In this document: positions 46,724-51,846 of the stretch, one piece after another | How positions within the stretch are numbered: the first letter of the stretch is position 1 | Layout: the number at the start of each line of letters is the position of its first letter | The notes under the pieces: generated by a model | The model's database searches: none | What the model saw: only the letters and a program-made list of their open reading frames with translations | What the model was told of the DNA's origin: nothing | Source: Candidatus Eiseniibacteriota bacterium | GTDB taxonomy: Bacteria > Eisenbacteria > RBG-16-71-46 > CAVPCR01 | DNA: 64,000 nt | Assembly (NCBI GenBank): GCA_963823555.1 | Contig: CAWGMA010000001.1 | Span: forward strand, 2,080,001-2,144,000 | Reading direction: 5' to 3' | Made by a program: the position numbers and the translations under genes

Positions 46724-47641
46724 CTAGCGGTAGCTCGCCTTGAGCGAACCCCAGGTCGTGGGCTCGACCGCGGTCGTCTGGCAGGCGATGCCCTCGTGCT
46801 GGGTGATGATGTTGGTCCCGAACCCAGACGTGTAGACCACGCCGTTGTTGTTCGAGGTGATGGCCGTCTGGCTTGCTCCCACGCCCGGGAACGTCGCGAG
46901 CGGCGGGGTGGTCAGGGTCTGGTGGAACTGATGCCGGTTGAGCTGGAAGTTGGTGGCGAAGAACATGTCGAGGCAGCGATCGTAGTCGATCTCGCCCCAC
47001 GAGCCGCCGCCCGGAACCGCCTGCGACGAGATCTGGGTCCACTGGCCGGCCGCACCGAGGGTGATCTTCTTGATGAGACCCTCGTTGTTCGAGACCCAGA
47101 TGCCGCCCGAGCCGTCGACGCAGATGCCGAGGATGGTGTTGATGTTGGCGTTCGGGTTCGGGTTCATCGCGCCGTCGACATTCCAGAACTCGTTCAGAGC
47201 ACCCGAGGCCCGGTTGATCGACATGATGATGTCGTCGTGCAGGTTCAGGTCGCCCTGGAAGTCGGTGACGAGGAGACGGGCGCCATCAACGGAGGCACCG
47301 TCCTGGTTGCCATCGATGGTGAGCCCGTAGCCGAGGATGTTGAATGACCGGATCACCGGGTAAGGATTCACGGTGCTCTGCTCGATGAGACGCCCGCCCG
47401 ACTCGTTGGCGACCCACACGCTGTTGGCGTCGTAGGCGAGCCCGACAACGGACTGAGCGGCAGCAGGCCAGCTCGCCTGCACGGTGCCGAAGGCGACGTC
47501 GGGAGCGCTGCCACCCGGCACCGAGCCGAGCTCGTTTGCTGCCCAGACGGTGAACGATGAGTACTCGGTGGCCGATGCGACACTGGCGGCGAGTGCGAGC
47601 GCCGCAATCGTCACCGCGAACATCCTGACGCAGTTCCGCAT
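46724..47641 (-). CDS. Secreted beta-propeller-like protein with C-terminal AVEPTTWGSLKA motif
   Basis: Signal peptide ending ASA; blades such as GLAYDANSVWV and GICVDGSGGIWV. Confidence 0.85.
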   Translation of the reverse strand: MRNCVRMFAVTIAALALAASVASATEYSSFTVWAANELGSVPGGSAPDVAFGTVQASWPAAAQSVVGLAYDANSVWVANESGGRLIEQSTVNPYPVIRSFNILGYGLTIDGNQDGASVDGARLLVTDFQGDLNLHDDIIMSINRASGALNEFWNVDGAMNPNPNANINTILGICVDGSGGIWVSNNEGLIKKITLGAAGQWTQISSQAVPGGGSWGEIDYDRCLDMFFATNFQLNRHQFHQTLTTPPLATFPGVGASQTAITSNNNGVVYTSGFGTNIITQHEGIACQTTAVEPTTWGSLKASYR

Positions 47642-47768: not shown

Positions 47769-47977
47769 GCAACAACAAATGACTCGTCCGGAGGAGCCGG
47801 AGGCGAGCCGAGGGCGATCTCGCTCTCCTGTCGGGTCGCATGCCCCCCTGAGACCGGGTGTGGGGACATGGCCCCGGCCCTCGAGCCGCCGGAGAACGTC
47901 TCGGGATCATCCGGAACCCTCTGCCCCTCAATCAGTTGAAGACGCGATCCAGCCGACCGTATTGAGCTCGGGCGCAG

Positions 47978-47993
47978 AGGCATGTGCCTTGCT
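47978..47993 (+). promoter_or_regulatory. Sigma54 -24/-12 promoter
   Basis: AGGCATGTGCCTTGCT (GGCAYG-N4-TTGCW); predicted +1 at about 48004; IHF-like TCAATCAGTTG at 47928-47938. Confidence 0.65.
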
Positions 47994-48003
47994 GTACCAG
48001 GCT

Positions 48004-48328
48004 GGCGACGGGAGCCGGGCTACCGCCGGACCCCAACCCGGTGGCAGCCGTTGCGAGAGCGGTCCTCCTCTCTCCTCGGCCGCGCCGCCCTCCAGGCGGC
48101 GCGGTGTACGAACCGCGATCGCAGCGGCAAACCAGGGTCCAAATCTCCAGGACCCGCCTGGCACCCAAAGCCCTCTGGGGTGCCACCCAACCGGCGCCGC
48201 CTGGGCCTCGAGGCGTCGGACGTGCGATGGGGTGGACGGCCCCCATCGCACGAAGAGGTGACCTGTCACCCTGGCAGTCGTGGGCGGCATTCCCCGCCGC
48301 ACGCCGACTGCCACCGGCTCCCGTCTCC
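48004..48328 (+). ncRNA. Candidate novel large multi-hairpin ncRNA
   Basis: 12-bp closing helix 48007-48018 / 48314-48325 enclosing about 9 adjacent hairpins; intergenic; 5' end at the predicted sigma54 +1. Confidence 0.6.
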
Positions 48329-48637
48329 CGCCTTCTTCTGGCGCGCCCCCGAACCACGTCACCGCCGGTCCAAGCGGCTACGGAATTTGCTGTTGCCGTC
48401 GCAATGGCCGGTGCTAGGATGGCGCGCGGCAGCGCCGGGGCACGTTCGCACACCGCTTCGCAGCACAGGGCAAGCAGCTCACCAGAACAACACGAACGGC
48501 TTTCTGACCGCGAACGGCTTCTCGAACCACCTCGGAGCCGCAGTGGGCGCGCGGCCGGCGGATTCTCACCCGTCCATTCCTTCGTAGCGTGACGATCCCC
48601 GTCGGGGCCCAGGACGGACCTCGAGAGGAGAGCCAAG

Positions 48638-50173
48638 GTGCCCAAAGGCTCAGATCCCCACGTGCCGCAGGGAAAGCGGCCTCCGGTTTCCACGTCCCGG
48701 AGATCCTCTTCATCGCATGACGATGAGGCCGATGCGGCAGCGGGGACGCGGCATGAATCCAGCCCCACGCTGACCTGGGCCAAATGGATCGAGTCGCTCG
48801 GCACGCCGTCGGTGTCGGAGGATGCACCCGAGCCTCGCGCCGATCTCGCCGGGCTCGCGGAGCGCCTGCGCGAAGCCACGGAGAGAGCTCGCCAGGTCCG
48901 GAGCGCTCGTGAAGCCTCCATCAGCGGCGCGGTGAGAGAGGTCCCGGCAACGGCCGCCGCTCCCGCGGCTCGCGAGGCAGCCACTAAGCCGAAGCCGCGT
49001 CCACGCACATCCGGCAAGCCTGCGAAGGCAGCTCCCAGGGCGCGGAAGCAAGTGCCCGCGCCGCCGAGGGAGATCGAGCCGAAACCCGCGCCGAGCCCAT
49101 CCCCGGTCCGGTCGCGCCGGAGCGAACGCGCATCCGGATCGGTGCCGCCAGCGGCACCTGCGAAGGAGCTGGTGGCGGCACCCGCTCCCATCGCGCGGGC
49201 ACAGGCGCCGGCTCTGGCTCGCCGCGACCTCGAGACGCAAGCACCCACCGCGCCGCCGGCGCCAGCGAGTCGATCCCATCCGCCGGCGGAGCGCTTGGCG
49301 GTCCATGACGACCCGTTACCCCATGGCTATGGCGACGACCGCATCGTGCTCATGAGCAAGGATCCCTACTGGCTTCACGCCTACTGGGAGCTGACCGGAG
49401 CCAGCCTCAAGCGAGCGTGGGAATTGCTCGGGCACACGACCGCAGCGCTGGCGCTTCGCGTGCACCATTTCGCCGCGGCCCATACCGGCGATGAATCCGG
49501 CTCGTTCGATGTCGAGGTCAGCGAGCAAGCTCGCAACTGGTACATCCACGGTGGCCATCCCGGAGGAGCTTTCGAGGTCGAGGTCGGACTCAAGTCCGCC
49601 GACGGTCGTTTCGTGGGCCTCGCTCGTTCGGCGAGGATCGTGTGTCCCACGGACCGACCTTCCGATCTCCTCGACGAGGAATGGCTATCCCTGGCTGGCG
49701 AATTCGAGGAGATCTACGCGCTCTCCGGCGGTTACCGCACGCTCACGAGCGGCGGATCGCTCGAGCTGCGCGAGCTTCTCGCCCGCCGGATGGAGGAAAT
49801 GATGGGGTCCGGGGCGGTGTCGAGCTTCGGCATCTCGAGCCTCGGCGTGTCGAGCTTTGGCGCACCCGCGATCGGCGCATCCGGTGCCTATCCGGCGGCA
49901 CCCCGCCACCGCAAGTTCTGGTTCGTCCTCGGCACCGAGCTCATCGTCTACGGGGCGACCGAACCCGATGCCAAGGTCACGTGTCAGGGCCGTCCGGTCA
50001 CCCTGCGACCGGACGGGACCTTCACCCTGCGTTTCGCTCTTCCGGATGGAACGCAGACCATCCCGTGCACAGCCACTTCCGCGGATCGAGTCGACACGAT
50101 CACGATCACCCCGCGGGTCGAGAAGAACACCAGCCAGGAAGAACGGCGCCACGATGGTGACAGGCATCCCTAG
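48638..50173 (+). CDS. DUF4912 domain protein
   Basis: LPHGYGDDRIVLMSKDPYWLHAYWEL, ARNWYI, FWFVLGTELIVYGATEPDAKVT, RPDGTF; GAGGAG SD. Confidence 0.88.
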   Translation: MPKGSDPHVPQGKRPPVSTSRRSSSSHDDEADAAAGTRHESSPTLTWAKWIESLGTPSVSEDAPEPRADLAGLAERLREATERARQVRSAREASISGAVREVPATAAAPAAREAATKPKPRPRTSGKPAKAAPRARKQVPAPPREIEPKPAPSPSPVRSRRSERASGSVPPAAPAKELVAAPAPIARAQAPALARRDLETQAPTAPPAPASRSHPPAERLAVHDDPLPHGYGDDRIVLMSKDPYWLHAYWELTGASLKRAWELLGHTTAALALRVHHFAAAHTGDESGSFDVEVSEQARNWYIHGGHPGGAFEVEVGLKSADGRFVGLARSARIVCPTDRPSDLLDEEWLSLAGEFEEIYALSGGYRTLTSGGSLELRELLARRMEEMMGSGAVSSFGISSLGVSSFGAPAIGASGAYPAAPRHRKFWFVLGTELIVYGATEPDAKVTCQGRPVTLRPDGTFTLRFALPDGTQTIPCTATSADRVDTITITPRVEKNTSQEERRHDGDRHP

Positions 50174-50241
50174 CATCGCCTCGGTCGCCGAATTCCCGGC
50201 CCTACCCCTCTATGGCGGCTCGCGCCGCCCCTGGTGACAGC

Positions 50242-51846
50242 ATGGCCCGAGGATACCTCTCGCTCATCCTGCATGCCCACCTGCCGTACGTGCGGCATCC
50301 GGAACACGAGGACTTTCTGGAGGAGCACTGGCTCTTCGAGGCGATCACCGAGACCTACATCCCGCTCATCCAGGTCTTCGAGAAGCTCAACGAGGATGAG
50401 GTGCCGTACCGTGTCGCCATGTCGGTCAGCCCCTCCCTCGTCAACATGCTCGCCGACCCGATGCTCATGCAGCGCTACGAGCGCCGGCTGGAGCAGCTCT
50501 GCGAGCTCGCGGCGCGGGAAGTGGAGCGCACGCGATGGATGCCCGAGTTCCACCGTCTGGCGCTCCATTACCACTGGCTGTTCCACGGGCGCGGCAGACA
50601 TTCGTGGATCGCCATCGCAAGAACCTGCTCGGCGCGCTCAAGGAGCTCGCCGACTCGGGATCGCTCGAGATCATCACCTGCGGCGCCACCCACGGCTATC
50701 TGCCGCTGATGAATCAGAACCGCCAGGCCATGCGCGCGCAGGTCCAGGTCGCGGTCGCCGAGCACGACGGCACTTCGGGCGGCGTCCGCGCGGCATCTGG
50801 CTCCCCGAGTGCGGCTACGAACCCGGGATCGACGAGCTGCTCGCCGAAGCGGGCATCCGCTACTTCATCGTCGACACCCACGGCGTCCTGCACGCGACAC
50901 CGCGACCGAAGTACGGCGTCTTCGCTCCGATCGTCTGCCCGTCGGGAGTGGCGGCCTTCGGCCGCGACATCGAGTCATCGAAACAGGTGTGGAGCGCGCA
51001 GGAGGGGTACCCGGGCGACTACGTCTACCGCGACTTCTACCGCGACGTCGGCTGCGATCTCGACTACGACTACGTCCGGCCCTATCTACCCGGAGACGGC
51101 AACCGCAACATCACCGGGATCAAGTACTACCGGATCACCGGGCAACACGGACACAAGCAGCTCTACGATCCGGACGTCGCCCTGACCGTGCCGCGGAGCA
51201 TGCCGGCAACTTCATGTTCAATCGCGAGAAGCAGGTCGAGCATCTGCATGGGCTGATGGGGCGAGAGCCGATCATCGTCGCGCCTTACGACGCCGAGCTC
51301 TTCGGCCACTGGTGGTACGAGGGGCCTAGCTTCCTCGACTTCCTGCTGCGCAAGATCGCCTTCGACCAGGACACACTGAAGACGACCACTCCGCGCGAGT
51401 ACCTGGACCGGCTGCCGCGCAACCAGCGGGCCACCCCGTCCGCATCGAGCTGGGGCTACAAGGGCTTTCACGAAGTATGGCTCAACGGCACCAACGACTG
51501 GGTCTATCCTCACCTGCACAAGGCGGCGGAGCGGATGATCCAGCTCGCCGAGCGCTTTCATTATCTCGGCGGCCAGCACGGTGTCGGCGTGCCTCCCCTG
51601 CGCGTTCGCGCCCTCAACCAGGCGGCGCGGGAGCTCTTGCTCGCGCAGCACTCCGACTGGGCCTTCATCATGAAGACGGGGACGATGGTGGACTACGCCC
51701 ACCGCCGCACCTGGACCCATCTGAGCCGCTTCAACCGGTTGTTCGACGACCTGGAGAATGATCGCCTCGATCCCTCGTGGCTCGAGGCCGTGGAATGGCG
51801 GGACAACATCTTCCCGCATCTCGATTATCGCGTCTTCTGCCACTAG
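50242..51846 (+). CDS. GH57 1,4-alpha-glucan branching enzyme (DUF1957), three apparent frameshifts
   Basis: HAHLPYVRH, ETYIPL, ATHGYLP, GIWLPEC (nucleophile), PYDAELFGHWWYEG, ARELLLAQHSDW; frame changes near 50590, 50765 and 51185. Confidence 0.9.

Follow-up and report, generated by a model that had tools for sequence, protein, structure and literature searches.

Among the bacterial RNAs described to date, those that most resemble the element reported here are regulators with several anti-Shine-Dalgarno loops. The cuckoo RNAs, NfeR1 and RNAIII share a pattern of variable stems that carry loops of a conserved type (PMC4615179, PMC10746234, PMC2837412, PMC2790875). NfeR1 blocks ribosome-binding sites (PMC4615179, PMC10746234) and, like the Rsa RNAs, is described as acting independently of Hfq (PMC10746234, PMC2790875). 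Other points of comparison are CrcZ of Pseudomonas, a stand-alone RNA of 426 nt with an RpoN-dependent promoter that titrates Hfq by A-rich repeats (PMC4063720), and the large many-helix RNAs ROOL, GOLLD and OLE, reported as of unknown function (PMC12286853).

The window (the whole stretch of 64,000 nt analyzed here) derives from a genome of Candidatus Eisenbacteria. Its order was represented by five genomes (G000 to G004), of which G000 carries the window, G001 belongs to the same genus, and G003 and G004 belong to another family. The original prediction placed a discrete ncRNA of about 325 nt between two divergent genes, and this RNA (hereafter the long RNA) is very probably real and stand-alone: its promoter, start and fold are conserved in four genomes, its helices covary, and contigs from RNA libraries lie inside it (Table 1). 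Like the cuckoo RNAs, alpha-r14 NfeR1 and CcsR of Alphaproteobacteria, it has several variable-stem hairpins with anti-Shine-Dalgarno loops (PMC4615179, PMC10746234), but where the cuckoo RNAs have two to four adjacent hairpins, each with CCUCCUCCC, the long RNA holds eight arms within a closing helix, and it also differs in its degenerate loops, sigma54 promoter and phylum. Several C-rich loops that can reach Shine-Dalgarno sequences are likewise described for the Rsa RNAs and the large, multi-hairpin RNAIII of Staphylococcus aureus (PMC2837412, PMC2790875), from which the long RNA is set apart by the lack of sequence or Rfam similarity, of a conserved peptide and of an intrinsic terminator, and by its sigma54 promoter and invariant terminal helix. 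It is close to CrcZ (PMC4063720) in size, in standing alone and in promoter type, the latter being read here from sequence only, but unlike CrcZ it carries no (ARN)n repeats and comes from genomes in which Hfq went undetected. Compared with ROOL, GOLLD and OLE (PMC12286853), it is smaller, has no Rfam match and shows no conserved long-range loop pairs.

No family was reached in the Rfam search (best 23.7 bits against a gathering threshold of 50), and Rfam 15 gave nothing at E<=1 for the three homologue loci. The earlier view that the element is not RNase P, tmRNA, SRP or 6S holds, as the genome's copies of all four lie elsewhere on contig C1. The long RNA belongs to none of the tested families; its features resemble those of multi-loop anti-Shine-Dalgarno regulators. 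UGGA is a T-box motif, and a T-box-like reading was rejected given the absence of an Rfam T-box match and of a synthetase gene. The literature searched contained no description of the long RNA, which motif-discovery supplements or subscription journals could list, and on regulatory RNAs of Ca. Eisenbacteria it gave nothing beyond one unrelated paper. The long RNA is an uncatalogued large RNA restricted to one order, and conserved, expressed large bacterial RNAs outside Rfam are rare.

Table 1. Features of the long RNA locus, in window positions
Feature	Position	Strand	Evidence or remark
Divergent gene, 305-aa predicted secreted protein	46724..47641	-	no Pfam match
IHF-like core CAAnnnnTTR; 50 nt ahead of the -24 element	47929..47938	+	3/4 homologues
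Sigma54-type -24/-12, GGCAT-N5-TTGC; predicted +1 = G48004	47979..47992	+	4/4 homologues; rpoN in genome
ncRNA, predicted extent	48004..48328, 3' end maybe ~48335	+	fold, covariation, RNA contigs, GC-matched windows
P1, 5' strand	48007..48018	+	core GGGAGCCG (48010-48017) invariant in 4/4 long forms
P2 hairpin, C-rich loop	48023..48044	+	absent from G003
P3 long arm, apical hairpin 48079-48105 with loop CUCCA	48047..48128	+	ensemble
P3 unpaired tract CCUCCUCUCUCCUCG	48064-48078	+	kept only in G001
P4 hairpin, loop AAAUCUCCA	48135..48155	+	alignment, ensemble
P5 hairpin, CCUC in loop	48159..48185	+	both-side changes in 4/9 pairs
P6 hairpin, self-complementary GGGCCU loop in 3/4 homologues	48191..48219	+	loop comparison, ensemble
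P7 hairpin, loop UGGACGGC (48233-48240)	48221..48252	+	loop invariant 4/4; both-side changes in 5/10 pairs
P8 small hairpin	48257..48270	+	absent from G001
P9 interrupted hairpin, loop AUUCCCC	48273..48312	+	ensemble
P1, 3' strand	48314..48325	+	core CGGCUCCC (48315-48322) invariant
Sigma70-like promoter of DUF4912 operon, extended -10 TGCTAGGAT at 48412-48420	48393..48420	+	similar in 5/5
DUF4912 gene, downstream neighbour	48638..50173	+	PF16258, E 2e-26

The fold of the element has a minimum energy of -210.7 kcal/mol (z = -8.51), better than all controls, which comprised 100 dinucleotide shuffles and 1322 segments of 325 nt with matched GC content from its own genome. The minus strand gave z = -5.03. 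In the ensemble, a 12-bp closing helix encloses eight arms, with pair probabilities of 0.87-1.0 for most helices. The closing helix was recovered as predicted, at a pair probability of 0.99 and with its extension to 48004/48328. Ten hairpins had been proposed between its strands, of which eight appear in the ensemble (48023-44, as a core only, 48079-105, 48135-55, 48159-85, 48191-219, 48221-52, 48257-70 and 48273-312). The other two, 48055-74 and 48113-27, do not, and are replaced by one long arm in which 48047-63 pairs with 48112-28 and which bears the 48079-105 hairpin. Mechanical open reading frames of 201, 202 and 144 aa overlap the element; a Pfam scan of those of 201 and 144 aa gave no match, and a hexamer-based gene caller called no gene over it. 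A search for a conserved in-frame small-peptide ORF found start-like columns, but the frames break among the homologues, in keeping with the original view that the region has no credible ORF.

The -24/-12 element upstream, identified against the sigma54 consensus, is where it had been predicted. All four long-form loci keep GGCAY-N5-TTGC with a G at twelve bases downstream of TTGC, so that the proposed start near 48004 is conserved, and in the window, G001 and G004 this G begins the closing helix. Over the 9.2 million strand-bases of the genome, the sigma54 core pattern has 52 occurrences, and among these that of the element has the longest closing helix (12 bp, the next having 9) and the lowest folding energy. 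The IHF-like site anticipated upstream is also present, with the IHF core CAAnnnnTTR; such a core lies 38-50 nt upstream in three of the four homologues and is absent in G001. One-sided changes among the homologues lead mostly to G-U pairs on the + strand, which is therefore favoured. A generic scan found no intrinsic terminator after the 3' end. The sigma54 dependence, the strand and the ends of the RNA are inferred.

Sequence of the element also occurs in RNA libraries, where contigs of two metatranscriptome studies fall inside 48016-48319. The data were four runs in the form of contigs that carry no strand, ends or level, with 32 of 88 pieces listed, and DNA can occur in such libraries. A 303-nt contig starts at 48016 and ends inside the closing helix, its 24 loose letters being read as diverged 48296-48319, and a 292-nt contig covers 48025 to ~48317. 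In the second study, 48060-48263 is covered with 0-2 differences, and one RNA contig matches the G001 type. At least eight substitutions were seen in the element among the 40 rows listed (with 90 more beyond), essentially from one strain: five are unpaired, two fall in stems with the pair kept (G-U to G-C, U-A to U-G), and one falls in a weak 2-bp helix. The bins at 48321-49622 had no cover in four runs that were chosen with this stretch, a hole that proves nothing and was not counted.

Homologues were found in four of the five order genomes, or three of four beyond that of the window (G001, G003 and G004). That of G001 was retrieved by BLAST (69% over 274 nt), and those of G004 and G003 were located by walking upstream of DUF4912, not by the helix motif. 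All three share the layout seen in the window, with z of -8.76, -6.48 and -8.56 for G001, G004 and G003, respectively. Once aligned, the four sequences pair in 91% of cells, and both sides are changed in 16 of the 56 pairs (shuffle mean 7.3, 0/500 as high; slid controls 1-4). The homologues and covariation sought upstream of DUF4912 genes are thus present in three relatives, although this covariation is support rather than proof, since the structure was derived from the same sequences and four kin are few. The features invariant in all four long forms are the helix core GGGAGCCG/CGGCUCCC, with its 8 bp identical in G003 and G004, and the P7 loop UGGACGGC.

A covariance model of the 3' half (R1; the full-length model was too long to calibrate) detected only the four training genomes among 151 genomes of the class (16 candidates scored per genome), with best E values of 0.2 in G002 (85% complete) and 0.25 in 15 upstream regions of other families. 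No BLAST match to the element was found at 79 DUF4912 loci outside Eisenbacteria, and R1 gave none at 35 of them or at 26 Lon-like loci. A loop-plus-helix pattern matched 3 of 206 phylum genomes, with G003 escaping through spacing, and a search of phage records and viral contigs yielded nothing real. A 19-nt 5' motif had 81 matches in metagenomes; promoter and closing strand occurred together in 0 of the 80 listed, and these matches were discarded as chance. Behind the RNA of G004 (L049:2850-2930) are two additional strong hairpins, one of them like the closing helix (E 0.016).

The same helix core occurs in a sigma54-driven rod RNA of ~100 nt in 10 genomes of another order, all of family f9 (loci L295:781-907+, L296, L418, L419, L420 and L422-L426). 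A promoter-plus-GGGAGCCG pattern matched 20 of the 206 genomes of the phylum, against 11 for the reversed control. Among 16 non-training matches, the closing complement followed 56-59 nt on in five, all from f9 and with a T-rich tail wherever the contig continues, and was lacking in 11; as a chance control, such a complement was present in 1 of 80 viral matches. A model built from the five (R2) recovered the RNA in 5/5 further f9 genomes (E 4.5e-9 to 4.9e-17) and in 0/5 genomes of other families (best E 0.17). Four of these R2-found loci have the sigma54 core, and the fifth begins at a contig end. Across the ten short RNAs, 91.5% of cells pair and both sides change in 7 of the 24 pairs (3/500 shuffles as high); the five that were folded gave z of -2.8 to -3.8. 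Rfam found nothing near threshold at seven f9 loci. The short RNAs are located upstream of a PF01676 metalloenzyme gene, and their loops contain CUCC, UCCC or CCCC words in 9 of 10 cases, with a conserved loop core that is not anti-Shine-Dalgarno.

GGGAGC/GCUCCC is invariant in 14/14 RNAs across the two orders, 10 of which came from pattern or model searches biased towards this helix, and the interiors of the two forms show no alignable similarity. By their helix sequence, the f9 RNA is probably a short sibling of the long RNA. As a rough estimate, chance would produce such helix sharing in a few percent of cases, and kinship or a shared binding partner therefore appears likely. Kin or not, the f9 RNA merits its own family entry. 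Like the invariant P7 loop and the anti-Shine-Dalgarno-like loops, it was not part of the original prediction. In a further family (f10), a sigma54-type promoter at L294 (G049:C166, ~330-477, -) is followed by ~125 nt containing a CCCCUCCUCC stretch, a strong GC hairpin and a T tract, possibly a further anti-Shine-Dalgarno small RNA.

For the long RNA, we tentatively favour a role as an Hfq-independent repressor of translation acting through several anti-Shine-Dalgarno (CCUC/CUCC) loops. An enhancer-binding protein would activate the sigma54 promoter, and the stand-alone RNA would be made, its 5' and 3' ends shielded by the closing helix that begins at the predicted start. The eight arms would present C/U-rich loops (CCUC, CUCC, UCCC) matching the Shine-Dalgarno complement. 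Through pairing with these loops, several mRNAs would have their ribosome-binding sites covered and their translation initiation blocked without Hfq, which was not found in 5/5 genomes of the order. Unpaired bases are 41-53% C in the homologues. Unpaired segments with CCUC/CUCC number 5, 6, 4 and 5 in the four homologues, compared with 1.5, 3.2, 1.4 and 1.4 after in-place shuffling of the unpaired letters (p 0.007, 0.053, 0.035, 0.005) and 2.0, 3.5, 1.7 and 1.7 after dinucleotide shuffling and refolding (p 0.04, 0.06, 0.06, 0.01), modest values for a motif picked post hoc in four sequences that are kin. Accessible CCUC/CUCC sites amount to 10/12, 14/22, 4/11 and 5/9 in these homologues, and to 0/6, 1/5 and 0/2 in RNase P, tmRNA and 6S of the same genome. 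These words match the 16S tail, which ends in ACCUCCUUU in this genome; the exact cuckoo motif occurs once, in an internal tract of G001 only.

On the other hand, repression through anti-Shine-Dalgarno loops leaves unexplained what is conserved best, namely the P1 core and the UGGACGGC loop. Pairing of UGGACGGC is poorer to start regions than to coding DNA, and the complement of this loop is absent from 16S, RNase P, 6S and SRP and occurs twice in ITS-23S and once in tmRNA, at chance level. The loops are degenerate, not conserved letter for letter, and short closed loops of a nine-way junction may pair poorly. A preference of three loops for start regions is partly circular, because gene starts were chosen with a Shine-Dalgarno bonus. 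Among 3490 crude gene starts, the one that pairs best with the 48066-48081 tract, in a tie for first place at -28.7 kcal/mol, belongs to a nuoH-like gene (start at G000 C1:224035-224070), a candidate target that may serve as a lead only. The matching purine tract is kept in G001 and absent in G003 and G002 (the G004 locus did not extend to it), so that no target is conserved across the order. The nuoH-like gene (L263:1061-2103, G000:C1:224060 on) lies in two frames, which suggests indel errors in the assembly.

A structured 5' leader of the DUF4912-GH57 operon, raised in the original prediction as the alternative to a discrete RNA, is contradicted by the loci of the relatives and now seems very improbable. 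The RNA does lie upstream of DUF4912 in 3/4 genomes, lacks a detectable intrinsic terminator, and has a short form that is likewise just upstream of a same-strand gene. In G003, however, an opposite-strand rtcB (422 aa), ending ~20 nt behind the RNA, sits between it and DUF4912; the G002 locus is intact yet has neither sigma54 promoter nor RNA, its uracil-DNA glycosylase gene leading straight into the DUF4912 promoter; and an extended -10 precedes DUF4912 in 5/5 order genomes. This last promoter, to which a generic promoter scan gave no score, is separate from the RNA. Constant inverted ends around a variable interior, loci that differ between the two orders and an empty site in G002 would also fit a MITE-like non-autonomous mobile element with the invariant ends as terminal inverted repeats, a reading that is extremely improbable. 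The dispersed copies that would mark a MITE or REP-like element were not seen, the element being single-copy in each genome; the same locus is occupied in two families, the promoter beyond the repeat is kept in 13/13 copies with upstream DNA, and the covariation lies inside the element.

That one helix stays invariant where others covary suggests that its sequence is specifically recognized, and we therefore weighed, as the main rival, a scaffold or sponge in which the terminal helix docks a putative protein and the interior is an exchangeable payload binding a second factor. This is rather unlikely, although the shared core is constant in 14/14 RNAs while neighbouring stems covary, it is identical in G003 and G004, whose loci were located through their neighbouring genes, and decoy RNAs under sigma54 control are known, CrcZ being one (PMC4063720). 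Against it stand the helix-favouring recovery of 10 of the 14 RNAs, the dissimilar interiors of forms that are only probable kin, and the searches for a partner: Hfq was not found, as above, and TROVE (Ro60) was not found in 5/5 order and 5/5 f9 genomes (81-100% complete). The ends of Y RNAs form a helix of conserved sequence, and Y RNAs tether Ro60; the conserved terminal helix and the big pyrimidine-rich loop of the short form recall them, but Ro60/TROVE is undetected in these 10 genomes, an Rfam match is absent, and the helix sequence differs from the Ro site. A broader version, doubtful at present, would be a modular sigma54-transcribed RNA family of the phylum, in which the invariant helix docks an RNA-binding protein and payloads are exchanged, the payload being a single pyrimidine loop (~100 nt) in one order and an eight-arm array (~270-330 nt) in another; if true, the phylum would have a tether system comparable to that of Y RNAs but lacking both Ro60 and Hfq. 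In an order without detectable Hfq, FliW and Ro60, the helix common to both RNAs could serve as bait for an RNA chaperone. With csrA in 5/5 order genomes and FliW in 0/5, an RNA antagonist of CsrA would be expected, and the invariant P7 loop places a GGA in a hairpin loop. A CsrB-like decoy, or CsrA bound at that loop, is nevertheless improbable: accessible GGA on the + strand number 1, 1, 1 and 2 in the homologues, against 22 GGA in CsrB (PMC7652899), an A stands two bases ahead of GGA in only 1/4, hairpins selected for CsrA binding are short, in contrast to the 10-12 bp of the P7 stem, and csrA, present in 179/206 phylum genomes, does not track the RNA. The minus strand is richer in accessible GGA (2-4), but promoter and G-U pairs favour the plus strand. 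Quite improbable, too, is a self-assembling architectural RNA forming multimers via kissing loops in the manner of ROOL and GOLLD. In 3/4 homologues the P6 loop shows self-complementarity of 6-8 nt, and in the fourth of 4 nt, GCGC occurs in the P8 loop of two, and size and radial arms are compatible, but no conserved loop-loop pair or pseudoknot between different arms was found, sequence conservation is low for a tertiary fold, and P2 and P8 are dispensable.

Several observations concern the neighbouring genes. Separation of RNA and DUF4912 by an rtcB gene (PF01139; L050:1014-2282) is confined to G003. The DUF4912 proteins of the order (window, L010, L049, L050 and L233) have in common an N-terminal LxWAKW(I/V)E followed by a long low-complexity linker, while that of G003 (242 aa) seemingly keeps just this motif and the C-terminal part. 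The predicted secreted protein of the divergent gene ends with a TWGSLK-type motif; its gene is absent beside the RNA in G001 and is represented by RNA contigs in all four runs, to ~47728. The GH57/branching-enzyme gene (50212-51846) is broken across several frames, probably by assembly indels, and an RNA contig has an extra base at 50766.
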